From: a virus
Lineage: Duplodnaviria > Heunggongvirae > Uroviricota > Caudoviricetes
DNA length: 24,551 nt
IMG/VR virus record: IMGVR_UViG_2545824713_000005
Reading direction: 5' to 3' (one strand)
Shown piece by piece: positions 1 to 24,551 of the stretch. Position numbers and translations under genes: made by a program. Below the pieces are notes generated by a model, which was not told the origin of the DNA, searched no databases, and was given only the letters and a program-made list of their open reading frames with translations. Positions within the stretch are counted from its first letter, which is position 1. Every line of letters begins with the position of its first letter.

Positions 1-2
1 CG

Positions 3-2581: not shown

Positions 2582-2591
2582 AGTAATCAAA

Positions 2592-4099: not shown

Positions 4100-4100
4100 T

Positions 4101-5638: not shown

Positions 5639-5730
5639 GCCATTACAAAAGCCACTTCCTACAGAGTGGCTTTGATAATGGCTTATACCCTACACGGGAT
5701 AACTTAACTGATATCCCTTTTAACGGATAA

Positions 5731-5985
5731 ATGGAGCCAACAATGGCAGAGATTATTCCCATGACTGAAGAACAGAAATTCCAGTTAGAGATTTACAAAC
5801 TGGTCATGAACCAGAACGCAGCCGCAGAAGAAGCATTTCAATTCATTGGCACTGACGAACTGAAGCTTGAGCTATTCAAAATTCACTTCCAGTCAGGCGG
5901 CGCTAATTCAGATATCACGATCCGCACATTCGAAGCGGTGCGTAAATCTAAGGAAGCGTTAGACCTGTTCACCACCGGAGCATAA
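5731..5985 (+). CDS. Hypothetical small acidic protein (80-84 aa)
   Basis: ORF MEPTMAEIIPMTEEQKFQLEIYKLV...; the second ATG (5743) has the better RBS (GGAG). No family recognised. Confidence 0.45.
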   Translation: MEPTMAEIIPMTEEQKFQLEIYKLVMNQNAAAEEAFQFIGTDELKLELFKIHFQSGGANSDITIRTFEAVRKSKEALDLFTTGA

Positions 5986-6064
5986 ACATGGCAACTCAAG
6001 GTTTCGACAACCCATCCAAATTCCGCGATGAATGGGATAAGCAAGCAGAAGGGAAATAATCAAT

Positions 6065-6490
6065 ATGGCGACTGAGAAAAAGAATGTCGGTCGCCCTTCG
6101 GATTACCTGCCGGAGGTGGCTGATGATATCTGTGCGCTGCTTGCCTCCGGGGAAAGTCTGGTTAAGGTTTGCAAGCGCCCAGGCATGCCAGCAAAGGCTA
6201 CTGTATTTCGCTGGCTGTCAGAGCATGAAGAATTTAGAGACAAGTACGCGAAGGCAACTGAGGCACGAGCTGATTCTATTTTCGAAGAGATATTCGAAAT
6301 TGCTGACACTGCGATTCCAGATGCTGCTGAGGTGGCAAAGGCAAGACTTCGCGTTGATACCCGCAAATGGGCGCTGGCCCGAATGAATCCCCGTAAGTAT
6401 GGCGACAAGGTAACTAACGAGCTTGTCGGCAAAGACGGCGGCGCAATCCAGATTGAAACATCACCGATGAGCACTCTATTCGGAAAATGA
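6065..6490 (+). CDS. Terminase small subunit (Sf6 gp1-like, 141 aa)
   Basis: MATEKKNVGRPSDYLPEVADDICALLASGESLVKVCKRPGMPAKATVFRWL... HTH-type small terminase; length matches the recalled Sf6 gp1; lies immediately upstream of the large terminase. Confidence 0.85.
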   Translation: MATEKKNVGRPSDYLPEVADDICALLASGESLVKVCKRPGMPAKATVFRWLSEHEEFRDKYAKATEARADSIFEEIFEIADTAIPDAAEVAKARLRVDTRKWALARMNPRKYGDKVTNELVGKDGGAIQIETSPMSTLFGK

Positions 6491-7899
6491 CCTCGATTAA
6501 TCCTATCTTTGAACCGTTCATTGAGGCGCATCGCTACAAAGTCGCCAAAGGCGGTCGAGGTAGCGGTAAATCATGGGCAATTGCGAGACTGCTTGTTGAA
6601 GCGGCGCGTCGGCAGCCAGTGCGTATTCTCTGTGCTCGTGAACTGCAAAACAGTATCAGCGATTCGGTAATCCGGCTGCTTGAAGACACCATAGAGCGTG
6701 AAGGGTATACGGCTGAGTTTGAAATTCAGCGTTCCATGATTCGTCATCTCGGAACGAATGCTGAGTTCATGTTCTACGGCATCAAAAACAACCCGACGAA
6801 GATTAAATCGCTCGAAGGCATTGATATCTGCTGGGTGGAAGAAGCGGAAGCGGTAACGAAGGAATCATGGGATATCCTGATACCAACCATCCGCAAGCCA
6901 TTTTCCGAAATATGGGTGAGCTTCAACCCGAAAAACATCCTCGACGATACCTATCAGCGATTCGTTGTAAATCCTCCCGATGATATTTGTCTGCTGACGG
7001 TGAACTACACCGACAACCCGCACTTTCCTGAAGTTCTCCGTCTGGAGATGGAAGAGTGCAAACGCAGAAATCCGACACTGTATCGTCACATCTGGCTTGG
7101 TGAGCCAGTGAGCGCAAGTGATATGGCAATCATCAAACGTGAATGGCTTGAAGCCGCAACCGATGCGCACAAGAAACTCGGATGGAAAGCGAAAGGCGCT
7201 GTTGTCTCTGCGCATGATCCATCAGATACAGGGCCAGATGCTAAAGGTTACGCATCGCGTCACGGTTCGGTAGTTAAGCGTATTGCCGAAGGTCTGCTGA
7301 TGGACATCAACGAGGGCGCTGATTGGGCTACTTCGCTGGCGATTGAAGACGGCGCTGACCATTACCTGTGGGATGGTGATGGTGTTGGTGCCGGGCTACG
7401 CAGACAGACAACAGAAGCGTTCTCCGGCAAGAAAATCACCGCCACGATGTTCAAGGGCAGCGAATCGCCATTCGATGAAGGTGCACCATATCAGGCCGGA
7501 GCATGGGCTGATGAAGTCGTGCAGGGCGACAACGTTCGCACTATTGGCGATGTGTTCCGTAATAAGCGAGCGCAATTCTATTACGCGCTGGCTGACAGGC
7601 TGTATCTGACATATCGGGCGGTTGTCCACGGTGAGTATGCAGACCCCGACGACATGCTGAGTTTCGACAAAGAAGCGATAGGCGAGAAGATGCTGGAGAA
7701 GCTGTTTGCAGAACTGACGCAGATTCAGCGCAAATTCAATAACAACGGGAAGCTGGAGCTAATGACTAAGGTCGAAATGAAGCAGAAGCTCGGTATTCCA
7801 TCTCCTAACCTGGCTGATGCGCTGATGATGTGTATGCATTGCCCGGCATTGGTCCGCGAAGAAACAGAAATATACGTCCCCTCATCCTCCGGTTGGTAA
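6487..7899 (+). CDS. Terminase large subunit (ATPase/nuclease)
   Basis: 470 aa; Walker A VAKGGRGSGKSWAIA near the N-terminus; ATGA overlap with the small terminase stop. Confidence 0.9.
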   Translation: MTSINPIFEPFIEAHRYKVAKGGRGSGKSWAIARLLVEAARRQPVRILCARELQNSISDSVIRLLEDTIEREGYTAEFEIQRSMIRHLGTNAEFMFYGIKNNPTKIKSLEGIDICWVEEAEAVTKESWDILIPTIRKPFSEIWVSFNPKNILDDTYQRFVVNPPDDICLLTVNYTDNPHFPEVLRLEMEECKRRNPTLYRHIWLGEPVSASDMAIIKREWLEAATDAHKKLGWKAKGAVVSAHDPSDTGPDAKGYASRHGSVVKRIAEGLLMDINEGADWATSLAIEDGADHYLWDGDGVGAGLRRQTTEAFSGKKITATMFKGSESPFDEGAPYQAGAWADEVVQGDNVRTIGDVFRNKRAQFYYALADRLYLTYRAVVHGEYADPDDMLSFDKEAIGEKMLEKLFAELTQIQRKFNNNGKLELMTKVEMKQKLGIPSPNLADALMMCMHCPALVREETEIYVPSSSGW

Positions 7900-7901
7900 A
7901 C

Positions 7902-10028
7902 ATGGCAGAGACATTAGAGAAAAAACATGAGCGGATCATGCTCAGGTTTGACCGCGCCTATTCTCCACAGAAGGAAGTGCGCGAAAAGTGCATTGAAGCT
8001 ACGAGGTTTGCTCGTGTCCCCGGAGGTCAATGGGAAGGAGCAACGGCGGCTGGAACTAAGCTTGATGAGCAGTTCGAGAAGTATCCTAAGTTTGAAATCA
8101 ATAAGGTAGCAACTGAACTTAACCGCATCATTGCAGAATACCGCAATAACAGAATCACCGTTAAGTTTCGTCCTGGTGACAGAGAGGCAAGCGAAGAGTT
8201 AGCCAATAAATTAAATGGTCTGTTCCGTGCTGACTACGAAGAAACTGATGGCGGTGAGGCTTGCGATAATGCATTTGACGACGCTGCTACTGGTGGTTTC
8301 GGTTGCTTCCGTTTGACGTCGATGCTGGTCAATGAATACGACCCCATGGACGATCGTCAGCGTATTGCTATTGAACCAATATACGACCCGTCGCGCTCTG
8401 TGTGGTTTGACCCTGACGCTAAGAAGTACGACAAATCTGACGCGTTGTGGGCGTTCTGTATGTATTCGTTGTCACCTGAAAAATATGAGGCTGAATACGG
8501 AAAGAAACCTCCTGCTTCTCTGGATGTAACGTCTATGACCAGTTGGGAATATAACTGGTTTGGTGCAGATGTTATTTACATAGCGAAGTATTACGAAGTT
8601 CGTAAAGAGTCTGTTGACGTCATCAGTTATCGACATCCAATCACTGGAGAGATTGCAACATACGACAGTGATCAGGTTGAAGATATTGAAGATGAACTGG
8701 CAATAGCTGGATTTCAGGAAGTGGCAAGGCGCTCAGTGAAGCGCCGTCGTGTGTATGTATCCGTAGTGGATGGTGATGGTTTCCTTGAGAAACCTCGACG
8801 TATTCCTGGTGAGCATATCCCCCTCATCCCGGTTTATGGAAAACGCTGGTTCATTGATGACATTGAGCGTGTCGAAGGGCACATTGCAAAAGCAATGGAT
8901 CCACAGCGTTTGTACAACCTTCAGGTTTCAATGCTGGCTGATACTGCAGCGCAAGACCCCGGTCAGATCCCTATAGTTGGCATGGAGCAAATTCGTGGAC
9001 TTGAGAAGCACTGGGAGGCTCGCAACAAGAAACGCCCAGCGTTCTTGCCGTTGCGCGAAGTGAGAGATAAATCTGGCAACATTATCGCTGGAGCTACCCC
9101 GGCAGGATATACACAGCCTGCGGTTATGAATCAGGCATTGGCTGCATTACTACAGCAAACCAGTGCTGATATTCAGGAGGTTACAGGCGGCAGTCAGGCC
9201 ATGCAGCAGATGCCAAGTAATATTGCTCAGGAAACGGTTAACAACTTGATGAACAGAGCAGATATGGCTTCGTTTATCTATCTGGACAATATGGCGAAAA
9301 GTCTTAAACGCGCTGGTGAAGTATGGCTGTCAATGGCGCGTGAAGTGTACGGTTCAGAACGTGAAGTGCGCATCGTTAACGAAGATGGAAGTGATGATAT
9401 CGCTGTCCTGAGCGCACAGGTTGTTGACAGGCAAACAGGGGCTGTTGTTGCGTTAAATGACCTTTCTGTCGGTCGATACGATGTGACGGTTGATGTTGGA
9501 CCAAGCTACACAGCACGACGTGATGCAACGGTTTCTGTACTGACAAATGTCCTTAGCTCTATGCTTCCAACAGACCCAATGCGCCAGGCAATTCAGGGTA
9601 TTATTCTGGACAATATCGATGGCGAAGGCCTTGATGACTTCAAAGAGTACAACCGAAACCAACTGCTGATATCTGGTATTGCAAAACCACGCAATGAGAA
9701 AGAGCAGCAGATTGTTCAACAGGCGCAAATGGCAGCACAAAGCCAGCCAAATCCTGAAATGGTTCTCGCTCAGGCGCAAATGGTAGCAGCGCAGGCAGAA
9801 GCGCAAAAAGCAACTAACGAAACTGCTCAAACTCAAATCAAAGCATTTACTGCCCAGCAGGATGCGATGGAGAGTCAGGCAAACACTGTCTATAAACTGG
9901 CTCAAGCCAGAAACATCGATGACAAAGCAGTGATGGAGGCAATACGCCTTCTGAAAGATGTCGCCGAGTCACAACAACAGCAATTCCAGTCACCACCACA
10001 GTCACCGGCAGACTTAATGCCGAGTTAA
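7902..10028 (+). CDS. Portal protein (P22 gp1 / Sf6 gp3-like, 708 aa)
   Basis: Start placed at ATG 7902 just after the terL stop (MAETLEKKHERIMLRF...); the track ORF from 7830 overlaps terL. Conserved core ...KRRRVY...GEHIPLIPVYG... resembles P22 portal; Q/A-rich C-terminal tail. Confidence 0.9.
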   Translation: MAETLEKKHERIMLRFDRAYSPQKEVREKCIEATRFARVPGGQWEGATAAGTKLDEQFEKYPKFEINKVATELNRIIAEYRNNRITVKFRPGDREASEELANKLNGLFRADYEETDGGEACDNAFDDAATGGFGCFRLTSMLVNEYDPMDDRQRIAIEPIYDPSRSVWFDPDAKKYDKSDALWAFCMYSLSPEKYEAEYGKKPPASLDVTSMTSWEYNWFGADVIYIAKYYEVRKESVDVISYRHPITGEIATYDSDQVEDIEDELAIAGFQEVARRSVKRRRVYVSVVDGDGFLEKPRRIPGEHIPLIPVYGKRWFIDDIERVEGHIAKAMDPQRLYNLQVSMLADTAAQDPGQIPIVGMEQIRGLEKHWEARNKKRPAFLPLREVRDKSGNIIAGATPAGYTQPAVMNQALAALLQQTSADIQEVTGGSQAMQQMPSNIAQETVNNLMNRADMASFIYLDNMAKSLKRAGEVWLSMAREVYGSEREVRIVNEDGSDDIAVLSAQVVDRQTGAVVALNDLSVGRYDVTVDVGPSYTARRDATVSVLTNVLSSMLPTDPMRQAIQGIILDNIDGEGLDDFKEYNRNQLLISGIAKPRNEKEQQIVQQAQMAAQSQPNPEMVLAQAQMVAAQAEAQKATNETAQTQIKAFTAQQDAMESQANTVYKLAQARNIDDKAVMEAIRLLKDVAESQQQQFQSPPQSPADLMPS

Positions 10029-10041
10029 CCAGGAGTAATCA

Positions 10042-10926
10042 ATGGAAAACGAACTGATCATCGACGGTCAGGTTATTGACCTGTCTGAAGCACAGGAAAA
10101 TGCAGAAGAAACCATCATCCAAACAGAGTCACAGCCTGAGAATGAAAGCCAGGATGACAACGGTAAAGAGGTGGCAACTGAGCCTGAAAAAACCGAAGAG
10201 ACACCAGAAGATTACGCCTTGCGTATTGGTGATGAAGAAATTCAGCTTAACGCTGACGATGATGATCACATTGACGGGCAACCTGCACCGCAATGGGTGA
10301 AAGATCTTCGCAAAGGCTTCAAAGAAACACAGAAAGAAAACCGTGAGTTGCGCCGCCAGCTTGAGGAAGCATTAGCCAAGCCAGCGGAACATCAGCAACC
10401 ACAACCAGACGCTATTCCACCAAAACCGACTCTTGAGTCGTGTGATTATGACGAACAGGCGTTTGAACAGGCATTGACTGATTGGCATGAGAAAAAAGGC
10501 CGTGTCGAACAGCAGCAGCAACAAAAACTACGTCAGCAACAGGAATACCAGCAGCGTTTCCAGCAAAGGGTAGAAGCGCATAAACAACGGGCAGCCAAAC
10601 TTCCTGTGAAAGATTATCAGGAAATGGAAGCCATTGTTCTTAGTGAGCTACCACCAATTCAGCAGGAAATCATCATTCACTGTGCAGACGAAGGCTCTGA
10701 ACTACTCGCCTATGGCTTAGGTAAGAGCCAGCAATTACGCCAGCGTGTAGCCGCTGAGACAGATCCAATTCGCGCAGCATTCCTCTTGGGGCAGATTAGC
10801 AAACAGGTAAGCCTTGCTCCAAAACCAAAGAAAGCCATCAAGCCAGAGCCGGAAGTACGTGGTGGCGGTGCTGATGCGAAACAAGACGAATTCAACAAAT
10901 TATGCCCCGGCGCAAAAATCGAATAA
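10042..10926 (+). CDS. Scaffolding protein (P22 gp8-like, 294 aa)
   Basis: Acidic N-terminus, Q/E/R-rich predicted coiled coil; sits between portal and coat; AGGAG RBS. Confidence 0.75.
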   Translation: MENELIIDGQVIDLSEAQENAEETIIQTESQPENESQDDNGKEVATEPEKTEETPEDYALRIGDEEIQLNADDDDHIDGQPAPQWVKDLRKGFKETQKENRELRRQLEEALAKPAEHQQPQPDAIPPKPTLESCDYDEQAFEQALTDWHEKKGRVEQQQQQKLRQQQEYQQRFQQRVEAHKQRAAKLPVKDYQEMEAIVLSELPPIQQEIIIHCADEGSELLAYGLGKSQQLRQRVAAETDPIRAAFLLGQISKQVSLAPKPKKAIKPEPEVRGGGADAKQDEFNKLCPGAKIE

Positions 10927-10937
10927 GGAAAAGATAA

Positions 10938-12209
10938 ATGCCTAACAATCTCGACAGTAACGTCAGTCAAATCGTTCTGAAAAAATTCCTTCCGGGTTTT
11001 ATGTCAGATTTAGTTCTGGCGAAAACCGTAGACCGTCAGTTGCTGGCAGGTGAAATCAACTCCAGCACTGGCGATAGCGTTAGCTTTAAACGTCCGCATC
11101 AATTCTCATCCCTCCGTACTCCCACTGGTGATATTTCAGGGCAAAATAAAAACAACCTGATCTCAGGTAAAGCTACGGGGCGTGTAGGTAACTACATCAC
11201 TGTTGCTGTTGAATATCAGCAACTGGAGGAAGCGATCAAGCTTAACCAGCTGGAAGAAATTCTCGCGCCGGTTCGCCAGCGAATCGTTACCGACCTTGAA
11301 ACAGAGCTTGCTCACTTCATGATGAATAACGGTGCGTTGTCACTTGGTAGCCCCAATACTCCAATCACCAAATGGTCTGATGTTGCGCAGACGGCATCTT
11401 TCCTGAAAGACCTCGGCGTTAATGAAGGTGAAAACTATGCTGTAATGGATCCATGGTCTGCACAGCGACTTGCTGATGCGCAGACTGGTTTGCACGCTTC
11501 AGATCAATTGGTTCGTACTGCATGGGAGAATGCACAGATCCCAACCAATTTTGGCGGCATTCGCGCACTGATGTCTAATGGGCTTGCCTCTCGTACGCAG
11601 GGGGCATTTGGCGGAACACTGACAGTCAAAACACAGCCAACTGTTACCTATAACGCAGTTAAAGACTCATACCAGTTCACTGTAACATTGACCGGAGCGA
11701 CAGCCAGCGTTACAGGTTTTCTGAAAGCTGGTGATCAGGTTAAATTCACCAATACCTACTGGCTGCAACAGCAGACCAAACAGGCGTTGTATAACGGAGC
11801 CACACCAATTAGCTTCACTGCAACGGTTACTGCTGATGCTAATTCAGACAGCAGTGGCGATGTGACGGTTACGCTTTCTGGTGTTCCGATTTATGACACT
11901 ACAAACCCGCAGTACAACTCTGTAAGTCGTCAGGTAGCGGCAGGCGATGCCGTATCTGTAGTAGGCACTGCTAGCCAGACAATGAAGCCAAACCTGTTCT
12001 ATAACAAGTTCTTCTGTGGACTTGGCTCTATCCCACTGCCGAAACTGCACAGTATTGATTCTGCTGTTGCAACATATGAAGGTTTCTCCATCCGCGTACA
12101 TAAATACGCAGATGGCGATGCCAACGTGCAAAAAATGCGCTTTGACTTACTGCCTGCATATGTGTGCTTTAACCCTCACATGGGCGGTCAGTTCTTCGGT
12201 AATCCGTAA
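10938..12209 (+). CDS. Major capsid (coat) protein (P22 gp5 / Sf6 gp5-like, 423 aa)
   Basis: Gene order and size; followed by a strong intrinsic terminator, as expected for a highly expressed coat gene. Confidence 0.85.
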   Translation: MPNNLDSNVSQIVLKKFLPGFMSDLVLAKTVDRQLLAGEINSSTGDSVSFKRPHQFSSLRTPTGDISGQNKNNLISGKATGRVGNYITVAVEYQQLEEAIKLNQLEEILAPVRQRIVTDLETELAHFMMNNGALSLGSPNTPITKWSDVAQTASFLKDLGVNEGENYAVMDPWSAQRLADAQTGLHASDQLVRTAWENAQIPTNFGGIRALMSNGLASRTQGAFGGTLTVKTQPTVTYNAVKDSYQFTVTLTGATASVTGFLKAGDQVKFTNTYWLQQQTKQALYNGATPISFTATVTADANSDSSGDVTVTLSGVPIYDTTNPQYNSVSRQVAAGDAVSVVGTASQTMKPNLFYNKFFCGLGSIPLPKLHSIDSAVATYEGFSIRVHKYADGDANVQKMRFDLLPAYVCFNPHMGGQFFGNP

Positions 12210-12213
12210 TAAC

Positions 12214-12240
12214 AAGGGGCTTCCGCCCCTTTTATGTTTT
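12214..12240 (+). terminator. Intrinsic terminator after coat gene
   Basis: AAGGGGC-TTCC-GCCCCTT hairpin followed by TTTTATGTTTT, 5 bp after the coat stop. Confidence 0.6.
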
Positions 12241-12251
12241 AAGGAAACAAT

Positions 12252-12437
12252 ATGGATCGCATGAGTGTATTCCTTGCCGCAGATAACGAATCCGGACATG
12301 TACAGGCCGTTATCGCAGAAAAAGACTTCCAGTTTTTCGAAAAGTTGGGCTTTGTTGCCTCAGTTGATGAATTGAAACCGACCAGTAAGCGAGGTCGTAA
12401 GGCGGCAGACAATGGCAACAGTACTGACAAAGGGTGA
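12252..12437 (+). CDS. Hypothetical small protein (61 aa)
   Basis: ATG with AAGGAAA RBS right after the coat terminator; MDRMSVFLAADNESGHVQAVIAEKDF...; 3' end overlaps next gene start. Confidence 0.4.
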   Translation: MDRMSVFLAADNESGHVQAVIAEKDFQFFEKLGFVASVDELKPTSKRGRKAADNGNSTDKG

Positions 12438-12894
12438 GATCGTCCTTTTTGCGCTTCGTAAGTTTGCTATTGCTTCTAATGCATCGCTGACTGATGTTGA
12501 GCCGCAATCAATTGAAGATGGTGTAAATGATCTGGAAGATATGATGTCCGAGTGGATGATTAACCCCGGCGACATTGGTTACGCTTTCGCAACTGGAGAT
12601 GAGCAGCCATTACCAGATGATGAGTCAGGTCTTCCAAGAAAATACAAACACGCAGTAGGCTATCAGTTATTGCTGAGAATGCTATCTGATTACAGCCTTG
12701 AGCCAACTCCGCAAGTTCTCAGTAACGCCCAACGCTCATATGATGCCTTGATGACCGACACTCTGGTTGTTCCTTCAATGCGACGACGTGGAGATTTTCC
12801 TGTAGGACAGGGTAATAAATATGACGTGTTTACATCTGACCGATATTATCCAGGCGATCTCCCTATGATTGATGGCGATATCCCAAACGCATAG
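12412..12894 (+). CDS. Head-completion / tail accessory factor (P22 gp4-like)
   Basis: 160 aa; LTDVEPQS and DLE.MM.EW motifs resemble the recalled P22 gp4; position after coat. Confidence 0.7.
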   Translation: MATVLTKGEIVLFALRKFAIASNASLTDVEPQSIEDGVNDLEDMMSEWMINPGDIGYAFATGDEQPLPDDESGLPRKYKHAVGYQLLLRMLSDYSLEPTPQVLSNAQRSYDALMTDTLVVPSMRRRGDFPVGQGNKYDVFTSDRYYPGDLPMIDGDIPNA

Positions 12895-12902
12895 GTGAAT
12901 AA

Positions 12903-14321
12903 ATGCCGATTCAGCAACTTCCGCTTATGAAAGGTGTCGGCAAAGACTTTCGAAACGCCGACTATATCGACTATCTGCCAGTGAATATGCTGGCTACACC
13001 AAAAGAAATCCTTAACAGCAGCGGATATCTTCGCTCATTCCCGGGCATTGCCAAACGTTCTGATGTGAACGGTATATCGCGCGGCGTCGAGTACAACATG
13101 GCGCAGAGTGCTGTATATCGCGTGTGTGGGGGCAAGCTGTATAAGGGCGAAAGCGAAGTCGGTGATGTTGCCGGAAGTGGTCGTGTATCAATGGCGCATG
13201 GTCGGACATCTCAGGCTGTAGGCGTTAATGGTCAACTGGTAGAGTATCGCTATGATGGCACGGTTAAAACAGTCTCAAACTGGCCTACAGACAGCGGATT
13301 CACTCAGTATGAGTTAGGTTCGGTTCGCGACATTACTCGTTTACGTGGGCGTTATGCGTGGTCAAAAGACGGCACTGATTCATGGTTTATCACTGACCTT
13401 GAAGACGAATCGCATCCTGACCGTTACAGCGCACAATATCGTGCCGAGTCTCAGCCGGACGGCATCATCGGTATCGGGACATGGCGAGACTTCATCGTCT
13501 GCTTTGGTTCATCGACTATTGAATATTTCTCCCTGACTGGCGCAACCACCGTTGGTGCTGCTTTGTATGTCGCACAGCCATCACTGATGGTGCAAAAAGG
13601 CATCGCCGGGACTTACTGCAAAACGCCGTTTGCTGATTCGTATGCGTTCATCAGCAATCCGGCAACGGGTGCGCCGTCTGTATACATCATCGGCTCCGGT
13701 CAGGTGTCACCAATCGCCAGCGCGAGCATTGAGAAAATCCTCCGCTCCTACACTGCTGATGAACTGGCTGATGGTGTGATGGAATCGCTGCGATTTGATG
13801 CTCATGAGTTGCTGATTATCCACCTTCCGCGCCATGTTCTCGTGTACGACGCATCTTCAAGCGCCAATGGTCCGCAATGGTGTGTGCTGAAAACAGGTCT
13901 GTATGACGATGTGTACCGCGCTATCGACTTCATTTACGAAGGCAATCAGATAACGTGCGGCGATAAACTGGAGTCCGTGACCGGGAAATTGCAATTCGAC
14001 ATCAGCAGCCAGTACGACAAGCAACAGGAACACCTGCTGTTTACTCCACTGTTCAAAGCGGATAACGCCAGATGCTTCGATCTGGAGGTGGAATCATCCA
14101 CTGGCGTAGCTCAGTACGCCGACCGCCTGTTCCTCTCTGCAACCACTGACGGCATAAATTACGGGCGTGAGCAGATGATTGAACAGAATGAACCGTTCAT
14201 TTACGACAAACGTGTTTTGTGGAAGCGTGTCGGGCGCATCAGGAAAAATGTCGGCTTCAAATTGCGCGTTATCACGAAGTCACCTGTCACTCTGTCAGGC
14301 TGCCAGATAAGGATCGAGTAA
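12903..14321 (+). CDS. Tail hub protein (P22 gp10-like, 472 aa)
   Basis: Size identical to the recalled P22 gp10 and conserved order gp4-gp10-gp26. Confidence 0.75.
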
Positions 14322-15169
14322 TGGCTGATTCGAATCTCAATGAGCCGGTAATCATTCAGGCTACACGACTCGACACATCAGTCCTTCCACGCAATATCTT
14401 CTCGCAGTCATATCTGCTGTACGTTATCGCACAGGGTACTGATGTTGGTAACGTGGCGAACAAGGCCAACGAAGCAGGGCAGGGCGCTTATGATGCACAA
14501 GTCAGGAACGATGAGCAGGATGTGATTCTCTCTGACCATGAGCAACGAATTTCTGCTGCGGAAGCAACGCTTGTTAATCATGAGGAGCGAATCAGCCAGG
14601 CAGAATCAACTCTTCAGGAACATGAAACGCGAATCACTCAGAATGAAAGCGATATTGCGTCGCTTGATACCAGAGTTCAGTCGCTGGAATCGCAGGTTTC
14701 AGACCATGAAACGCGCATCGATGCTCTGGAGTATGCCACTACTCGCAAGAAGTCAGAGGTTGTTTACTCTGGCGTATCAGTAACCATTCCGACAGCGCCG
14801 ACCAACCTTGTTAGCCTGCTGAAAACGCTCACGCCGTCATCCGGCACGTTGGCACCATTCTTCGACACCGTTAACAACAAGATGGTTGTGTTCAACGAGA
14901 ACAAAACCTTGTTCTTCAAGCTGTCGATCGTCGGGACGTGGCCCAGCGGAACCGCAAACAGGTCAATGCAGCTAACCTTTTCCGGCTCTGTTCCTGACAC
15001 ACTGGTCAGCAGTCGTAATGCGGAGACAACAACCGACAACATCCTGTTAGCTACGTTCTTCAGCGTGGATAAAGACGGCTTTCTTGCCACAAATGGCAGT
15101 ACGTTAACCATTCAGTCAAATGGGGCGGCGTTTACTGCCACAACCATCAAGATAATCGCGGAGCAGTAA
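14321..15169 (+). CDS. Tail needle / cell-puncturing protein (P22 gp26-like, Sf6-type with C-terminal knob, 282 aa)
   Basis: Start at [43 protein letters not shown] (resembles P22 gp26 N-terminus); heptad-repeat trimeric coiled coil (HE.RI...E.TL repeats); C-terminal beta-rich domain; TAATG overlap with gp10. Confidence 0.85.
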
Positions 15170-15624
15170 TGATTCAGTTCAAACCAACGCGAAACATCGA
15201 CCTGATCGAAGCAGTCGGAAATCACCCTGACATTATTGCCGGAAGCAACAACGGTGATGGATACGACTACAAGCCTGAATGCCGTTACTTTGAGGTGAAC
15301 GTGCACGGGCAGTTCGGCGGCATTGTTTACTATCAGGAGATTCAGCCGCTGACATTCGATTGCCACGCCATGTACCTGCCAGAGATTCGCGGCTTCAGCA
15401 AGGAAATCGGGCTGGCGTTCTGGCGATACATTCTGACTAACACCACCGTTCAGTGCGTCACATCGTTCGCCGCACGCAAATTCCGCCACGGGCAGATTTA
15501 CTGCGCAATGATTGGCCTTAAGCGTGTAGGAACCATCAAGAAATACTTCAAAGGCGTGGATGATGTGACTTTTTACAGCGCAACACGCGAAGAACTAATC
15601 GACTTCCTGAATCACGGGAGATAG
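15169..15624 (+). CDS. P22 gp14-like protein (151 aa)
   Basis: Position between tail needle and ejection proteins; start overlaps needle stop (TAATG). Confidence 0.55.
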   Translation: MIQFKPTRNIDLIEAVGNHPDIIAGSNNGDGYDYKPECRYFEVNVHGQFGGIVYYQEIQPLTFDCHAMYLPEIRGFSKEIGLAFWRYILTNTTVQCVTSFAARKFRHGQIYCAMIGLKRVGTIKKYFKGVDDVTFYSATREELIDFLNHGR

Positions 15625-15626
15625 CC

Positions 15627-16319
15627 ATGTTATATGCATTTAAGATGGGCAGAAAACTGCGTGGCGAGGAACCTTATTGCCCTGAAAAAGGCGGGAAAGG
15701 TGGCAGTTCTGATAAAAGCGCAAAGTATGCAGCAGAAGCTCAGAAGTATGCCGCAGACCTGCAAAATCAGCAGTTCAACACCATCATGAATAACCTGAAG
15801 CCGTTTACTCCTCTGGCTGAGAAGTATGTCGGCAGCCTCGAAAACTTATCGTCTCTGGAGGGGCAAGGTCAGGCACTTAACCAGTATTACAACTCTCAGC
15901 AGTATAAAGACCTTGCAGGTCAGGCTCGCTATCAGAGTCTGGCGGCAGCGGAAGCAACAGGTGGATTGGGTTCCACCGCAACCAGTAATCAGTTAGCAAC
16001 AATCGCACCAACGCTTGGTCAGCAATGGCTATCTGGACAAATGAACAATTACAACAACCTGGCAAATATCGGTCTTGGCGCTCTTCAGGGACAGGCAAAC
16101 GCCGGGCAAACATATGCCAACAACATGAGTCAGATTTCGCAGCAAAGTGCGGCTCTTGCAGCGGCAAATGCCAACAGACCATCAGCAATGCAATCTGCTA
16201 TTGGCGGAGGTGCGTCTGGTGCTATTGCTGGGGCCGGACTTGCGAAATTAATTGGTTCATCAACTCCGTGGGGGGCTGCGATCGGCGGCGGTCTTGGTCT
16301 GCTTGGCTCGTTGTTTTAA
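15627..16319 (+). CDS. Ejection (internal virion) protein, P22 gp7-like (230 aa)
   Basis: Size and order; Q/N/A-rich with C-terminal Gly/Ala-rich hydrophobic segment (AIGGGASGAIAGAGLAKLIG...GGGLGLLGSLF). Confidence 0.7.
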   Translation: MLYAFKMGRKLRGEEPYCPEKGGKGGSSDKSAKYAAEAQKYAADLQNQQFNTIMNNLKPFTPLAEKYVGSLENLSSLEGQGQALNQYYNSQQYKDLAGQARYQSLAAAEATGGLGSTATSNQLATIAPTLGQQWLSGQMNNYNNLANIGLGALQGQANAGQTYANNMSQISQQSAALAAANANRPSAMQSAIGGGASGAIAGAGLAKLIGSSTPWGAAIGGGLGLLGSLF

Positions 16320-16329
16320 GGGGTAATCA

Positions 16330-17745
16330 ATGGCTACGTGGCAACAGGGTATTAATTCTGGTGGTTTTCTGGCTGGCATCGGTACGCAAAATGAGAATGC
16401 GCCAAAGGCAAGCGACATTAACGCAACGCTTGGTCTGATCCGCGAAAACAATGAACTGGCTCGCTCAGGTGCAAATAACGTTGGCCTGACCGCGTTACGT
16501 GGTCTGGCTGGAGTTGCTGATATTTACAATCAGGAACAGCAACAGAAAGCTATTAGTGCGTTCAATAAGGTTCACGCTGATGCATGGGCTTCTGGTGATC
16601 CATCGGGACTATTTAAGTTTGCCCAGGAAAATCCAGCGTTTGTTGCACAGGCACAACAGGCGTTTTCCGGTCTTAATGATCAGCAACGCAACGATATGGG
16701 CGATTTAGCCATGAGGGCTAACGTCGCTCTTTCTCAGGGGCCGGAAGCCTACAGTAAATTCATTACTGACAACAAGGACAGGTTAAATCGCGTTGGTGCT
16801 AATGCTGACTGGATGATTCAGACAGGTATCCAGAATCCAGAGCAGCTATCACACATGCTGACTACTATGTCTCTCGGTGCGCTTGGACCAGAAAAGGCGT
16901 TTGCTGTTCAGGATAAGATGGCTGGTCGTGAAATTGACCGAGGCAGGCTGGCAGAGACAATCCGCAGCAATCAGGCTGGTGAAGCACTTCAGGCGAGAGG
17001 GCAAAACCTTTCCTATCAGTCAGCAATGACTGGGCACAATATCGCAGCACAACGCTTGGCTCTGGATCAGCAAGAGTTCGGGTTTAAGATGCAGCAAGCG
17101 CAGGAAAAGGCTCAGCAGTTGATTAGCGAAGCACCTAAGCTGTCAGTAAACATGGAAAAAGGAATCGAGACGGCTGTAAACAATGCCACAGCATCATCAA
17201 ACTCAGCCAATTCCATGAGTGCGCTTGCTCAACAGTTCAGAGCAGAAAAACCAACGACAGGTTTGTTCGGTAACGCACAGAACATGTTCGCAAAACTTAC
17301 CGGAAGCGATACGACATTGCGTGATTTGCGCATTCGCCAAAATGCCCTTGTTAACAGTCAGGTTCTTAAATTCCTACCTCCCGGCCCAGCAACGGATAAA
17401 GACGTTGAGATCGTTAGACAGGGTGCGCCAACTGACATGGATAACCCTGAGACGGTCGCAAGATGGCTTGATGCAATGGCAAACCTTGAGCGACGAAACG
17501 CGCAGTTTAATGAGTTTAAAGCCGAGTGGATGAGCGCGAATGGCAACCCTGGACAATCGCGTAATGGCGGTCAGATATTGGGGTTGGATGTTAAAAAAGG
17601 TGAATCATTGGGGAGTGCCGTTAAGCGGTATATGTCAATGAATACTGACGCAGCGCCAGCACAAGATTCGACACCTTCAGGAGAACCACGGAGTCAGGTT
17701 GGATCATATACCTCAAAATCAGGCATTCAATTTACGGTGGAATGA
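16330..17745 (+). CDS. Ejection protein, P22 gp20-like (471 aa)
   Basis: Size identical to the recalled P22 gp20 and conserved order gp7-gp20-gp16. Confidence 0.7.
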
Positions 17746-19748
17746 TGAAAGTAACTGCAAACGGTAAGACATTTACCTTTCCTGATGGTACGAGCACCGA
17801 AGATATTGGCACCGCCATTGATGAGTATTTTGCTGGTCAGTCAGCACCAACACAACAAGGTGTTCAGCAATCGCCAGCAGACAACTCACTTGCATCAGGA
17901 TATGCACAGCTTGCCACTCAGCAGAAGGAAGGACTAGATCGCTCTGCTGAGCAAGGGGCTGTTTTAGGTGCTGCAATGCGCGATGCCGTTACCGGTGAAA
18001 GCCGAATGACACCAGAAATGGAGAGACTGCAAAATGTTGGGTCTGCTCCAGAGCTTAATAGCTTAAGCACTGATGCGCTGCGTGCTGGATTGGGGCAGCT
18101 ATTTGGTTCCGACGCTTCACAGGAGAAAATACTGCAAAGTATTGGCGGGAAAATCCGGAAGGATGAGAAGGGAAATTCCATAGTCACCCTTCCTTCAGGG
18201 GAATATGCACTTAACAAGCCTGGTTTGTCACCGCAGGATATAACGTCATTCTTGGCAAATGCTCTTGCATTCACTCCAGCAGGTAGAGCTGCGTCTGTTG
18301 TAGGTGCAACACTAAAATCAGGCGCTACTGATTTAGCTTTACAGGGTGCCACTAAGATCGCTGGCGGTGAGAATGTTAATCCAGTTCAAACTGCAATTTC
18401 TGCTGGTCTTGGTGGGGTACTAAAGGGTGTAGAAAACACCGCAAGCGCAGTGTCTCGTTCTGCTATGGGTAAGATTGCTCCTGAAAAACAAGCTCAGATT
18501 GACTTTGCCAAGCAGAACAACTTGCCACTGATGACAACAGATCTTGTGGAACCGGGAACAAATATTGGTAAGCAAGCACGAGCTATGGCTGAGCGAATCC
18601 CAATAGCCGGAACAGGTGGGATAAGAAATGCACAGCAAAAGGCCAGGGAAGATTTAGTTAGAACATTTAGCGATAATGTTGGTGGAATATCTGACGCACA
18701 ACTTTACCAATCAGCTACTCGTGGTCAGCAGCAATTTATTCAGGCTGCTGGCAAGCGGTACGACAGGATCATCAGTTTGATGGGGGATACTCCTGTTGAC
18801 ATCACTGGAACAGTGAAAGCAATTGATGAGCAGATTTCCAAGTTAACTCGCCCAGGAGTATCGCAAGACCGCTCAGCTGTTTCTGTCCTTCAACAGTTTA
18901 GAAATGACATCACCAGCGGTCCAAATAACCTGCAATTAGCTAGAGAAAACCGTACAAACTTACGTAAGCGCTTTATGGCAGCACCTGACGAGGTCGATAG
19001 AGATACGCTGGAGAAAGCTGCGCAGTCTGTTTATAACGCATACACAACAGACATGAAAAAAGCGGTTGGCGCAAAACTAGGTGCGAAGGAAGCGCAAAAC
19101 ATGTCGCGTGTTGATCGTTCTTGGGCAAAGTTCAACGACATGATGAGCAATACACGTGTCCAAAAAGCTATTCAGAGTGGTAAAACAACGCCAGAAGATG
19201 TCACTAAACTAGTATTCAGCCAAAGCCCAGCGGAAAGGGCGCAACTTTATCGATTGCTTGATGATAGTGGGCGTCAAAATGCTAGAGCAGCACTTGTTCA
19301 GCGTGCAATGGATAAGGCGACAAGCGATTCAGGAAAGCTTAGCGTTGAGAAGTTTATTAATGAAATGAAAAGGAATCGGAAGCAGGCTGAGACGTTCTTC
19401 AGAGGAGAGCATGGGAAACAGCTTGATGGGATAATGAAATATCTTGATTCCACTAGACAGGCAGCTACTGCTGCCGCAAGCCCACTAACAGGGCAAATGG
19501 TAGCTGGTCCAGCAGCGCTGATAACAGCTCTTGCGTCTGTTACAAATCCAATGTTTGCAAAAGTTGCGGCAGTTGGAGCTGGTATCGGTATGGCTGGCAG
19601 GGGCTATGAGTCACGCGCGATGAGGAACGCATTACTAAAGTTAGCAAACACGCCAAAAGGAAGTACTGCTTATGATAGAGCGATCAGACGGGTATCTGAA
19701 ACTCTTACACCTCTAATTCAGGCTTCAAGTGAGCAAGCCCAGCAGTAA
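17742..19748 (+). CDS. Ejection protein, P22 gp16-like (668 aa)
   Basis: Large A/G/Q-rich protein after the gp20 homolog; ATGA overlap with gp20 stop. Confidence 0.7.
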
Positions 19749-19756
19749 AAAGTTGG

Positions 19757-20077
19757 TTAGCGGTTGATGGTTGCTTTTTTCGGGTCATACCATCTCGGCC
19801 ATTCTTTCAGGAATGGGAATGAGTCGGGAGCGTGGTTCTTTTTGTACGATTTAAGCAGCCTTAACCGCTCAATCGCACACTCATAAACCTCTTGTTGCCC
19901 TGTAGTCATCTCGGTCCATGAAAGGTGATCCATTGATAAGACAACGTTTTCAGCTTCTTTTATGAGGGCGTTTTTATTTCTCACCGCAGCAGCATGGCTG
20001 ACAGAGCAATCCTGCCATATTCTTAAAAGCCAAATAGCTAAGCAGATGAAAAAAATGGTAGAGAGCGATATGTACAT
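19757..20077 (-). CDS. Hypothetical single-pass membrane protein (106 aa), last gene of the mnt-side leftward cluster
   Basis: MYISLSTIFFICLAIWLLRIWQD... N-terminal TM helix; AAGGAG RBS; AT-rich codon usage unlike the flanking structural genes; convergent with gp16, 8 bp apart. Confidence 0.55.
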   Translation of the reverse strand: MYISLSTIFFICLAIWLLRIWQDCSVSHAAAVRNKNALIKEAENVVLSMDHLSWTEMTTGQQEVYECAIERLRLLKSYKKNHAPDSFPFLKEWPRWYDPKKATINR

Positions 20078-20157
20078 GCCGATCTCCTTAGATTTATCAA
20101 TGCTGCATGATTTTCAACAGACATCAATCATGCAGCTATAGGTAATAAATCAAGAAA

Positions 20158-20658
20158 CTATTGAGAACGTTTGTCTTTTTGAGACTCTAATATAGCCAAT
20201 ACCTTATAAAGAGATTGGTTTGTTGAGTCTAATTTTTGATCAGTGTTATCAATCCTTGACTGTAATACTGATTGGTTGTTTTGGATAGTAGCCATTATCT
20301 CTGCCTTACTGGTTTGGATGTTTCCTGTTAGCTCTTGTCGTGATGATTCAACTTTATCATCTATAGTGCCTCGAATCGTCCATGTGGCGGCAACGATAGA
20401 ACCAATGATAGCAACTGCAACCCCGTATAGCTCTAAACGTTTCACGGTATCACGACCTTCTTCTTTGTGTTGCTCTTCTTGTAGGCTAAATATTTGTGGT
20501 TCCTTTGACGGATTTCTGTCAGTTGGTCTGTAATACTCTGAATATTTAGCGTTTTCTATTGAACTCCATAACGATTTGTCAAAGTCAAGGTTTTCATGTT
20601 GGCTTTGAGCATCTCCATAAATACTAGGTGATTTATTGTGAACATGTTGGTCAAACAT
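20158..20658 (-). CDS. Hypothetical membrane protein (about 166-170 aa) with central TM helix and C-terminal coiled-coil-like region; possible SieA-type exclusion protein
   Basis: Track ORF 20158-20670 begins at a GTG; I favour the ATG at 20658 with GGAG RBS. Central TM segment LYGVAVAIIGSIVAATWTI; start region overlaps the stop of the upstream Cys4 gene. Confidence 0.5.
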   Translation of the reverse strand: MFDQHVHNKSPSIYGDAQSQHENLDFDKSLWSSIENAKYSEYYRPTDRNPSKEPQIFSLQEEQHKEEGRDTVKRLELYGVAVAIIGSIVAATWTIRGTIDDKVESSRQELTGNIQTSKAEIMATIQNNQSVLQSRIDNTDQKLDSTNQSLYKVLAILESQKDKRSQ

Positions 20659-20998
20659 TATCTCCATCACCCTTTACGAATTTTCCAGAAGAGATATTTT
20701 CACTAACTTTGTTTAAACTAAAAAAGTGGAAGAAACCGCAAGTGGTGCATTGCATGGCTACCATGTTAAGACTATCGTTGCTATAAGTATCTTGATTAAC
20801 AGGATTATTAGGCAAGCTTTTACCTGGTATGGATGGGCCTATAACTTCAACACCATCATCTTTTTTAAGATGCTCAGGTGCTAAAAGAGTCCAGTTTGTA
20901 TTGCTGCATATTGGGCATACATAAGTTTTTTTGAATGAAGTCAAGTAATTACTAAAAGACTCAAAAGTAACTTTTAAGTATTGCTCCTTACTGCTCAT
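20651..20998 (-). CDS. Hypothetical Cys4 (zinc-ribbon-like) protein (115 aa), translationally coupled to mnt
   Basis: CPIC...(52 aa)...CTTCG motif; ATG overlaps the mnt stop (TAATG on minus strand); AT-rich. Confidence 0.5.
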   Translation of the reverse strand: MSSKEQYLKVTFESFSNYLTSFKKTYVCPICSNTNWTLLAPEHLKKDDGVEVIGPSIPGKSLPNNPVNQDTYSNDSLNMVAMQCTTCGFFHFFSLNKVSENISSGKFVKGDGDNV

Positions 20999-21237
20999 TA
21001 TTGGCCTCGAATCTTCTTAAGTACGCTAATTGCAATATCCATTGCTTCCTTCTCTGTTTTTGTGAGATCTTGAGATGTCGATGGTATGACCTTTTCTCTG
21101 TTAATCTTAATCCATAGCTGTATTGCAGCTATGATTTCAGCATTGATAGAGCGCCTGTTTGTTGCCGCAATGTGAGTAAGCTGCTGCTTGATTTCACTTG
21201 GCATTCTTACGTTAAATTGTGGATCGTTTCTAGCCAC
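20998..21237 (-). CDS. mnt: Mnt-like ribbon-helix-helix repressor (immI maintenance repressor)
   Basis: MARNDPQFNVRMPSEIKQQL... resembles the recalled P22 Mnt N-terminus (MARDDPHFNFRMP...); GTG start with AGGAGA RBS; divergent from arc. Confidence 0.85.
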   Translation of the reverse strand: MARNDPQFNVRMPSEIKQQLTHIAATNRRSINAEIIAAIQLWIKINREKVIPSTSQDLTKTEKEAMDIAISVLKKIRGQ

Positions 21238-21330
21238 GTCGCTCTCCTGTTATTTGTTGACATGCTAGAACGGTAGTAGTACGCTTTCAATAGTAGTACG
21301 GTGCTATCATTTAATGGAATGGAGTGGAAT
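21238..21330. promoter_or_regulatory. Divergent overlapping Pmnt / Pant promoter-operator region
   Basis: Plus strand TTGACA at 21257-21262 (Pant -35); on the minus strand -35 TTGAAA (21285-21290) and -10 TAGCAT (21262-21267) with 17-bp spacing (Pmnt); two direct copies of TAGTAGTACG at 21274-21283 and 21291-21300. Confidence 0.5.
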
Positions 21331-21492
21331 ATGCAAGGCGCAAGAAAAATGCCGCAGTTCAATTTGCGGTGGCCTAAAGAAGTATTGGATTTGGTACGCA
21401 AGGTGGCGGAAGAGAATGGTCGGTCTGTTAACTCTGAGATTTATCAGAGAGTAATGGACAGCTTTAAGAAGGAAGGGCGCATTGGCGCGTAA
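21331..21492 (+). CDS. arc: Arc ribbon-helix-helix repressor (53 aa)
   Basis: [53 protein letters not shown], near-identical to the recalled P22 Arc; start is the internal ATG with GGAG RBS inside track ORF 21301-21492. Confidence 0.9.
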
Positions 21493-21494
21493 AG

Positions 21495-21565
21495 TTGAAG
21501 CCCCAACTGCGGGAACAGTCAGGGCTTCGGTTGTCGGTAAATTCGTGGAGAAAAACCAACATGAA
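21495..21565 (-). ncRNA. Candidate sar-like antisense RNA covering the arc-ant intercistronic region and ant RBS
   Basis: By analogy with P22 immI: minus-strand TATACT -10 overlapping the ant start, and hairpin GAAGCCC...GGGCTTC at about 21503-21532. Ends not determined. Confidence 0.3.
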
Positions 21566-22496
21566 TAGTATAGCAATTTTAGAAGCAGTGAACACCTCTT
21601 ACGTGCCTTTCAATGGTCAGCAGATTTTAACCGCTGTGGCTGCCGGAGTGACTTATGTAGCGATGCGTCAAATTGTGGAAAACATTGGTATCGACTGGAC
21701 TGGTCAATCTGTTAAGTTGCGTAAAATGAAGGACAAATTCAACTGTAGAGATATCTCTATGGTTGCTGCTGATGGCAAGTTACGTAAGCTTTTATGCATC
21801 CCGCTGAAGAAGTTAAATGGATGGCTGTTCAGCATCAACCCTGAGAAAGTTCGTGCTGACATCCGTGATAAACTGATTCAGTACCAGGAAGAATGCTTTA
21901 GCGTGCTGCATGACTACTGGACTAAAGGTCATGTAGTTAACCCACGCAAAGCTAAAAAGGCGTTGCCGGGTAAAATCACCACTGAACAGCAGGAAGCCAT
22001 TAAACAACTCGTCATGAGTCGCGGTCAGTCTCTGCCAAAAGAAAAACAGGCTAAGGCGATGATCACCATGTGGTCGTCACTGAAATCCCATTTTGGATGT
22101 TCGTACAAAGAAATCAGTGAGGAGCAGTTTACCGAAGCACTATCACTTGCAGCTCGAGTTCCACTTGAAGGTGAGTTCATTGGCAAACAAGAGAAGAAAA
22201 CCAACGAGCTTTCTGCAAAAGAAGCAAACAGCCTTGTATGGTTATGGGATTATGCTAACCGCTCACAGGCATTATTCCGCGAACTGTATCCGGCATTAAA
22301 ACAAATTCAATCGAACTATTCCGGCAGATGCTACGACTACGGTCATGAATTCTCGTATGTTATCGGAATGGCGAGAGACGTTTTAATCAATCACACACGC
22401 GATGTTGATATCAATGAGCCAGACGGACCAACGAATCTTTCCGCATGGATGAGACTTAAGAATAAAGAATTACCTCCTTCAGTACATAACTACTGA
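21561..22496 (+). CDS. ant: Antirepressor Ant (311 aa)
   Basis: Start at [21 protein letters not shown]... with GGAG RBS (track ORF begins earlier at 21495); immediately downstream of arc as in P22 immI. Confidence 0.8.
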
Positions 22497-22513
22497 CAGA
22501 TAACCAACGCGAC

Positions 22514-22540
22514 AACCCAGCTTCGGCTGGGTTTTTTTAT
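22514..22540 (+). terminator. Intrinsic terminator after ant
   Basis: CCCAGC-TTCG-GCTGGG hairpin followed by TTTTTTT. Confidence 0.6.
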
Positions 22541-22596
22541 GCCCAAAATTCACCGTAGCCATGCTGCGGCGATTCCTTGTATCTGGAGCAAATTAA

Positions 22597-24411
22597 ATGA
22601 CAGACATTACAGCCAATGTGATCGTATCGATGCCTTCGCAACTTTTCACTATGGCGCGTTCTTTTAAAGCCGTAGCCAATGGCGAAATTTATATCGGGAA
22701 AATTGACACTGACCCGGTAAATCCTGAAAACCGGATTCAGGTTTATGTAGAGAATGAAGACGGTTCTCATGTTCCTGTTTCGCAACCAATAATCATTAAC
22801 GCTGCTGGTTACCCTGTATATAACGGACAGATTGCCAAGTTCGTAACTGTGCAAGGCCATTCTATGGCTGTTTATGATGCATATGGTGCACAGCAGTTCT
22901 ATTTTCCGAATGTTCTTAAATATGATCCTGATCAGCTTAAAGTATCTCTATCAGGGGAAGACGGTCTTAAATACATCGGGACATGCCCTGATATAGCAAT
23001 GTTAAGGACAATTGAGCCTGAGCGAGATCAGCAAAAGATTTTCGTCGACTTCCACACTACAGGCATGAAGCCGACAGTATCAGGTGATACTGGTGGTGGT
23101 CTGTTTGTGGCCGATTTCACAGATTCTACTTCTGCAGATGATAACGGCATGGTCATTGTCACTGCGGGTGGTAAACGCTGGAAACGTGATCTTCAAGGTA
23201 AGGGGTACGTAACACCACGTATGTTTGGAGCGTGGATGGATGCTCCATATATTGACTGGAGTACTATTCAGGCCACAGGGTATCCTAGAGCGCCAAGCAT
23301 GGGTGGCGTTGATTTAACAGGTGTAACAAATGATGGATTAGCACTTAATAAAGCTTATCTAACTAAGCTTCCTGTTTTCATAGACCAGCCTATATATATT
23401 GGTAACACTCAAATTGACATTAGCCAGTTTAGATGGGAAGGGATTAGTCTAAATCTATATGGGATTAATCCACAAAAAAGTATTGTTTATACATCAGGAA
23501 GTGGTGGTTTTGTTATGGGAAGTTGGGGGCACAATCTTAAAGTAAAGAATATGTGTTTTCGCAACGCTGACGATGAATATTCAGGTAGCCCATTGGTCAT
23601 TTCTGGTCAAACACAAACTTTTGGCGGTGGTAGTGAATATGATATTAAAAATAACATATTTCTACATTATAAATTTGCACTTCCCTTATCATGCTTTGTC
23701 AGTAATGTTACAAACAACCAAGCATATGATTGTATCTATGGTTTCGGTTTGGCTGGCACATCTACTACATTCTCTTCCAACTGGGCAAGGCATTGTGACT
23801 ACGGATATCTGTGGGGCGCGGCTATTGATAGAACAACATATGATCCGGTGAACAGTCCTTACCCATTGATGTATGTTAAGGCCACAAATATCGCGTCGGA
23901 TGGATGTAAATTACCACATAAGTTCTATCAATTTAGATCTTTAAGTATTGATGGTCTAGGTATTGAGGGTGTCACAGGAGATCATTGCTTAGATTTTACA
24001 GATATAGTTCAGCAGGATGCTACTTCGCTAATGGAGTTGTCAAATATCTCATGCGATCTTAAGGAAGACAATGCGGTAGGTGTGACGCACTTCATATCAT
24101 TGCCAACTAATGAACAGAATGGACCAACACAAGTTAGGATATCATCTGGATATGTTCGGGCACACAAAGGGATTACCCTTCTTAAGAATACATCTGACGA
24201 GTTAAGCCAGTATCAATGCCGTGGGTTTGATATTTGTGATGGGTTCAAATTCATAAAGCAAACAAGCGGTAGTTCTATCGCTGATGACTACGTTAGAGGG
24301 AGTAAATATCATTCAAGATTCTATGGTGAACATACAGGTATTGGTTATCAGACAGGCTCTAATGGCACTAAACTTTCAGCATTACATCAGGCATCTAGAC
24401 TGGCCCCCTGA
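22597..24411 (+). CDS. Tailspike protein: P22 gp9-like N-terminal head-binding domain plus divergent receptor-binding domain; 3' end interrupted by IS2 (last 5 codons and stop are IS-derived)
   Basis: First ~115 aa ([43 protein letters not shown]...NVLKYDPDQ) resemble the recalled P22 tailspike N-terminus; remainder is AT-rich and unrelated to it. ORF ends ...[10 protein letters not shown], where SRLAP-stop is encoded by TCTAGACTGGCCCCCTGA, the IS2 terminus. Confidence 0.8.
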
Positions 24412-24551
24412 ATCTCCAGACAACCAATATCACTTAAATAAGTGATAGTCTTAATACTAGTTTTTAGACTAGTCATTGGAGAGCAGATGATTGATGTCTT
24501 AGGACCGGAGAAACGCAGACGGCGTACTACACAGGAAAAGATCGCTATTGT
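24396..24551 (+). mobile_element. IS2 left end (IRL and start of orfA), continues beyond window
   Basis: TAGACTGGCCCCCTGAATCTCCAGACAACCAATATCACTTAAATAAGTGATAG... matches my recollection of the IS2 left terminal repeat region, followed by the InsC start. Confidence 0.75.
24487..24551 (+). CDS. insC: IS2 OrfA (InsC) N-terminal fragment, truncated by window end
   Basis: ATG with GGAGAG RBS; translation [22 protein letters not shown] matches the recalled IS2 InsC N-terminus. Confidence 0.75.

Follow-up and report, generated by a model that had tools for sequence, protein, structure and literature searches.

The immI region around the arc–ant spacer

The DNA analysed here (hereafter, the window) is a stretch of 24,551 nucleotides assigned to a virus of the class Caudoviricetes (IMG/VR record IMGVR_UViG_2545824713_000005). 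Between a gene-16-type DNA transfer protein (17742–19748) and the tailspike (22597 onward), it displays the gene order of the immI region of phage P22, with a leftward gene for an Mnt-like repressor, rightward arc and ant genes, and a sar RNA gene on the minus strand of the 68-nt spacer that separates arc from ant (Table 1). The encoded Arc and Ant proteins are 91 and 69% identical, respectively, to those of P22, and for the Mnt-like protein the identity to P22 Mnt is only 48%, measured across the N-terminal 40 aa. The arc stop codon TAA (21490–92) abuts or overlaps the 3′ end of sar, and the spacing of the ant Shine–Dalgarno sequence is that of the ribosome-binding site annotated in P22 (X01916).

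Upstream of arc, two divergent promoters overlap. Pant, which is the source of the arc–ant mRNA targeted by sar, consists of TTGACA (21257–62) and a weak −10, TACGCT (21280–85), separated by 17 nt. On the minus strand, the promoter scan called a Pmnt-like promoter (TTGAAA/TAGCAT).

Table 1. Features of the immI region of the window and their P22 counterparts (RefSeq NC_002371).
Feature	Window	Strand	P22 equivalent	Basis and remarks
Mnt-like ribbon-helix-helix repressor, 79 aa	20998..21237	−		Pfam Arc domain 5e-13
Pant and Pmnt-like promoter, divergent, overlapping, with operator region	21257..21310	both		Alignment to P22 Pant/Pmnt region
arc repressor gene, 53 aa	21331..21492	+		Pfam Arc 6e-31
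sar antisense RNA gene, 68–70 nt	21491..21560	−	sar, 15021..15090(−)	Rfam match 21493–21560; P22-annotation equivalent 21491–21560
sar hairpin II (terminator hairpin)	21497..21528	−	sar terminator, 15021..15058 (hairpin II plus tail 21491–21496)	14 bp, three of them G-U; loop UCCC
sar stem-loop I	21533..21560	−		MFE folds; 6-bp stem GUUGGU/ACCGAC, 16-nt loop with anti-Shine–Dalgarno CUCC
ant Shine–Dalgarno GGAG	21547..21550	+		10 nt upstream of ATG; can pair with the loop CUCC of stem-loop I
ant antirepressor gene, 311 aa, predicted sar target	21561..22496	+	ant start, 15091	Pfam P22_AR_N 2e-42, P22_AR_C 6e-30
Psar (predicted)	21567..21595	−	sar promoter, 15097..15125	28/29 identical to P22
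Intrinsic terminator after ant	22514..22533	+	Same position as P22 ant terminator	Terminator scan

Several details of this region vary in sequence or in annotation. Positions 21290–21310 (reverse complement ATGATAGCACCGTACTACTAT) match the P22 Arc operator at 16 of 21 positions, both 7-nt half-sites included; this Arc-operator-like site sits where P22 has its Mnt operator, and the position of P22 Oarc itself holds a partial match only. The start of arc is annotated differently among records: phage N7 uses the ATG at 21319 (57 aa), and the P22-equivalent ATG at 21331 (53 aa; Shine–Dalgarno GGAG at 21321–24, 6-nt spacing) is used by RefSeq for an identical E. coli prophage. Similarly, the longest ant-containing open reading frame begins at a TTG (21495) within the sar hairpin, and such an extended ant is annotated in Kapi1. 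To the left of the Mnt-like gene, three leftward ORFs of the ant moron (19757–20998, minus strand; 106, 170, and 115 aa) are labelled "hypothetical" in N7 and RefSeq. None of the three had a significant Pfam match; the 115-aa product displays a faint zinc-finger-like CxxC pattern.

The sar RNA, its promoter and its P22 counterpart

On the minus strand, positions 21493–21560 match the Rfam family RF00262 (sar RNA) along the whole model (positions 1–68 of 68) with a score of 94 bits (E 3e-20; gathering score 43 bits). This is the sole Rfam family above threshold anywhere in the window, and a covariance model built here gave the window sar 102.6 bits. In an ungapped alignment, the RNA maps to the P22 misc_RNA sar. 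A sequence-only reading of this DNA had proposed, for the interval 21493–21600, a sar-like antisense RNA over the ant ribosome-binding site, with a hairpin of the arc–ant spacer as its possible terminator. At the level of sequence comparison, the proposal is borne out by the full-length family match, by the alignment to the P22 locus (66 of 70 positions identical over sar, 28 of 29 over Psar), and by the same placement relative to arc, the Shine–Dalgarno sequence, and the ATG. The interval contains essentially all of sar (21491/93–21560) and all of Psar, and the hairpin was found at 21497–21528, where it also forms the 3′ stem-loop of the RNA, with only UUU after the stem. We regard the minus strand of 21491–21560, together with its promoter, as very probably the ortholog of P22 sar, lying in the immI region ("ant moron") of a P22-like (Lederbergvirus) E. 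coli prophage. The significance of this assignment derives from homology to RF00262 and not from the promoter motif by itself. Another Rfam family, ctRNA_pGA1, touched the sar hairpin with 22 bits (gathering score 45; E 0.21) and was rejected as a generic hairpin likeness.

The 70-nt minus-strand RNA has a minimum free energy of −31.1 kcal/mol (z = −6.5 against dinucleotide shuffles), and its predicted fold is the family structure of RF00262. As mapped from the P22 annotation, its 5′ end is the base directly before the ant ATG (21561), and the RNA ends at the stop codon of arc. Hairpin II, with 14 contiguous pairs and a 4-nt loop, is followed by the tail AACUUU (21491–21496) and then by ACGC. 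The terminator scan did not call this hairpin and tail (AACUUUAC; hairpin energy −21.9 kcal/mol), a canonical intrinsic terminator being one in which a GC-rich hairpin precedes a stretch of 8 nt with 5 U or more. The tail is short in the window, in P22, and in epsilon34 because it overlaps the stop codon and the last codon of arc; sar homologues with other upstream genes have terminator tails of 5–6 U.

The fold is stronger on the minus strand, both for hairpin II (−21.9 vs. −16.0 kcal/mol on the plus strand) and for the whole 70-nt element (−31.1 vs. −20.9 kcal/mol), since the three conserved G-U pairs of hairpin II become A-C mismatches on the plus strand. In addition, inspection of the plus-strand sequence 3′ of the hairpin found no U-run. 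This asymmetry between predicted folds points to a functional RNA on the minus strand, and not to an element of the sense-strand mRNA. A plus-strand terminator or attenuator was discarded on the same two grounds, the missing U-run and the weaker fold.

The −10 hexamer of Psar, TATACT, is the reverse complement of 21567–72, in ant codons 3–4 (AGT ATA). It is preceded by TGC (21573–75), whose TG (21574–75) falls in ant codon 5 (GCA), and the resulting extended −10, TGCTATACT, spans ant codons 3–5, clear of the ant ATG (21561–63). The +1 is predicted at the G opposite 21560. It follows the −10 by seven bases, with 6 nt between it and TGCTATACT, and is the last base before the ant ATG. At the −35 position, the hexamer GTGTTC (21590–95) is poor (2/6). 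The earlier reading had recognized the TATACT hexamer, which is indeed present and belongs to an extended −10; it had placed the hexamer over the ant start codon region, whereas the hexamer lies in codons 3–4. The predicted promoter is inside the first ant codons, and the +1 assigned by homology is immediately upstream of the ATG.

The motif TGNTATACT is not enriched in the window: it occurs once where 0.65 occurrences are expected, and about half of the shuffles (49 of 100) contain it as well. A generic consensus scan for promoters and terminators called neither Psar nor the sar hairpin terminator; Psar has a poor −35 and depends on its extended −10, and the terminator tail has only three U. 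This miss is uninformative rather than contradictory.

The sar RNAs of the window and P22 share the two stem-loops and the extended −10 TGCTATACT. They are alike in place, being antisense to the arc–ant spacer, with the 5′ end abutting the ant ATG and the 3′ end at the arc stop, and the target (predicted for the window) is a P22-type Ant in both. Relative to P22, the window sar has three loop substitutions (A16C, G18A, and A48C) and a single change in stem I, U25C, which turns G4-U25 into a stronger G-C pair. The −35-position hexamer, GTGTTC in the window and in epsilon34, is one base worse than the GTGTTA of P22. Further differences are the length of Ant (11 aa longer in the window), the Mnt-like repressor and the upstream operator region, and the host (E. 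coli vs. Salmonella). The closest annotated copy is that of epsilon34 (EU570103 15539..15606, sar by similarity), with two substitutions in sar; over a 116-bp sar and Psar query, the window is 98.3% identical to epsilon34 and 95.7% to P22. However, the mnt gene and operator of epsilon34 are P22-like, unlike those of the window, and the similarity between window and epsilon34 begins only at 21327. In the records of both P22 and epsilon34, sar, the sar terminator, and Psar are annotated at homologous positions.

Conservation among homologues and alternative readings

The homologue set comprised 12 phage copies and 42 viral-contig loci, of which 53 copies were aligned and 34 were distinct. Viral contigs were searched with a 14-mer scan and then filtered with the covariance model built here. 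By this model, 42 of the 80 listed loci held sar, and the remaining ones, without sar, were set aside as chance matches to the 14-mer. A MAFFT alignment of 12 homologues misaligned stem I, and individual folds and a covariance-model alignment were used. Folded one by one, all 12 phage homologues give the hairpin pair of the window sar (z from −4.5 to −7.3). Across the 53 copies, standard pairs occupy 97.2% of pair cells, compared to 27–48% when the partners are slid by 1–3 columns. Double-sided changes were found in eight pairs among the 34 distinct homologues, namely all six of stem I and two of stem II; stem I appears, for example, as GUUGGU/ACCGAC, GUCAAU/GUUGAU, and GUCGU/ACGAU. The covariation score was 0.347, against 0.136 ± 0.013 in shuffles, in an alignment that had been fitted to the model. 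In hairpin II, 98.9% of cells are paired and the sequence is nearly invariant. Ascertainment accounts for part of this invariance, since the 14-mer of the search is located in the same helix; stem-loop I, in contrast, falls into discrete sequence classes, such as GUUGGU.. in P22 and the window, GUCAAU.. in Kapi1, and GUCGUU.. in CUS-3.

The promoter core is conserved as well. In most distinct homologues, TGnTAnnnT stands at the same distance from the ant ATG, the exceptions being two rows in which the TG is one base out of register and one row in which it is missing. Its variants are TGCTATACT, TGCTAAACT, TGCTACACT, TGCTACAAT, and TGATATACT. In nearly all homologues, ant codons 3–5 read AGT, then ATA, TTA, or GTA, then GCA, a codon set that preserves T−7, T−12/A−11, and the TG even where the N-domains of Ant differ. 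Among isoleucine codons, ATA is rare in E. coli. The use of ATA, the encoding of serine by AGY and not TCN, and the constant A at the third position of codons 4 and 5 fit selection on a DNA motif as well as on the protein.

The unit formed by sar and the Psar core, including ant codons 1–5 (M-x-S-[ILV]-A), is kept before antirepressors of the P22_AR_N, Bro-N, and KilA-N types. Examples with differing Ant N-domains or flanks are found at loci L007, L013/L039, L038, L071, L073, and L006/L014, and in the window the unit corresponds to 21491–21575. At least six different flanks start immediately 3′ of hairpin II, and three Ant N-domains differ just past codon 5. As the flanks change at both edges, the sar cassette sits exactly between two mosaic junctions. 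These comparisons suggest that the segment from hairpin II to TGnTAnnnT, with the first five ant codons, may be a portable "antirepressor silencer" cassette.

In one viral contig, 3 kb from its first sar copy, there is a further and divergent sar-like element (L064:4239–4345) that scored 29.5 bits with our covariance model. It retains TGCTACAAT, a start abutting the ATG, a stem I (GUUAGU/ACUGAC), and a U-rich tail, together with a hairpin II of different sequence (GAGGCCCGG...CCGGGCUUC). The sar family thus extends beyond what the 14-mer scan recovers, and two sar/ant pairs can occur in a single phage.

Other readings of the locus have to be weighed against orthology with P22 sar. The conserved hairpin might act only in the sense arc–ant mRNA, as a stability or processing element or as an attenuator, with TATACT a by-product of Ant codons and no antisense RNA. 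It is true that the plus-strand fold, too, is more stable than those of shuffled sequences (z −3.2), that the −10 motif is not significant when taken alone, and that the conservation of the Ant N-terminus M-x-S-[ILV]-A as protein confounds the −10 with coding sequence. However, the minus-strand fold is better by about 10 kcal/mol, three conserved G-U pairs are lost to A-C on a plus strand that offers no U-run after the hairpin, and synonymous positions are fixed as the −10/TG motif requires (ATA; AGY, not TCN). As the homologous RNA is, moreover, annotated as sar in P22 and sequenced there, we consider an exclusively sense-strand role extremely improbable. A different possibility is that sar persists in the E. 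coli prophage by descent only, as an inert relic that regulates nothing, either because its promoter is too weak or because ant is irrelevant. This is highly improbable: none of the ant, arc, and mnt-like ORFs is interrupted and each has a strong Pfam match, the extended −10 is preserved together with all stem pairs, and the sole stem change strengthens a pair. Some features would agree with decay, such as a −35-position hexamer one base further from consensus than that of P22, the weak −10 of Pant (TACGCT), and the degraded immI regions of some P22-like phages (PMC2629481). Nevertheless, of 5426 complete E. coli genomes, 425 have sar and Psar matches, which cover at least 80% of the query in 267 of them, and at least 159 genomes have matches of at least 99% identity; this distribution fits maintenance and not decay.

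The extreme conservation of hairpin II and its flanks could also reflect mainly a "boundary sequence," that is, a linker for homologous recombination between mosaic modules, a reading that is compatible with sar function. The CUS-3 record annotates a "bsq2 boundary sequence" ending inside the sar region, and there is an abrupt switch of flanking sequence directly 3′ of hairpin II and another right after ant codon 5. Yet the limits of the conserved block are exactly those of the functional RNA plus its core promoter, the covariation of stem I is not required of a recombination linker, and the divergent second copy of L064 keeps the architecture despite its different hairpin II sequence. As the main cause of the conservation, a boundary sequence is very improbable; with mosaic junctions at both edges, such a role may add to it.

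Proposed regulation and distribution

In P22, it is established that a leftward RNA of 68–69 nt, sar, represses ant translation in trans (cited in PMC7968456, PMC3134472, PMC10732415). Its size has been given as 69 nt (cited in PMC3134472), its mechanism is a block of ant translation (PMC7968456, PMC10732415, PMC11016777), and sar reads were detected by small-RNA sequencing of P22 (PMC13397905). By homology, RNA polymerase would start leftward at Psar in the window, from the extended −10 TGCTATACT and at the G opposite 21560. The transcript would cross the arc–ant spacer and, as in P22, end after hairpin II at about 21491–21493, at the arc stop, yielding an RNA of 68–70 nt that covers the spacer and the Shine–Dalgarno sequence and not the AUG. 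Judging from its sequence, such an RNA would match the intercistronic segment of the arc–ant mRNA from Pant with full complementarity, its CUCC lying in the loop of stem-loop I. The duplex with the mRNA would probably sequester the ant Shine–Dalgarno GGAG and block the translation of Ant, the outcome established for P22. In this way, sar would be a post-transcriptional brake on top of the transcriptional control exerted by Arc and the Mnt-like protein as repressors of Pant, and the limited synthesis of antirepressor would support repressor-based control of lysis and lysogeny, as proposed from P22.

Other cis-antisense RNAs that block the mRNA of a regulator or make it unstable are found in phages, such as lambda OOP, directed against cII, and the CA RNA of phage N15, directed against its antirepressor (PMC3134472, PMC10732415). 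Like sar, both are small constitutive antisense or regulatory RNAs that limit a regulator of lysis–lysogeny at the post-transcriptional level; unlike the copies described above, they have no sequence or structural homology to sar. As a cis-antisense regulator of textbook type, the window sar introduces no new principle. What is mildly new comes from the comparison only, namely that the sar/Psar cassette is kept before antirepressors with different N-domains and, as far as aligned sequences tell, constrains their first five codons.

The classes of stem-loop I could, in addition, be RNA-level specificity (heteroimmunity) groups, in which the sar of a resident prophage would silence ant only in those superinfecting or co-resident phages that belong to its own class. 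We consider this rather unlikely. If true, the classes would resemble the incompatibility groups of antisense-controlled plasmids; the window copy would be in the P22 class.

The RNA gene described here is an unannotated copy of a curated RNA family in its canonical context, and its kind is already known. Neither the record of N7 nor the examined RefSeq region of E. coli annotates sar, and no RNA feature was found under the E. coli sar and Psar matches among the matches listed. The practical value of the gene lies in annotation: models of induction and anti-immunity in such P22-like prophages should include the sar brake on the antirepressor. The immI segment of the window is 100% identical to Escherichia phage N7, to phage HZ41, and to a prophage in the chromosome of E. 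coli 2017.15.02CC. With N7, the window shares 98.4% identity over 6402–22940 only. The left 6.4 kb (1–6400) and the C-terminal, receptor-binding part of the tailspike (22940–24551) are unlike those of N7, HK620, and Sf6, a mosaicism typical of Lederbergvirus.
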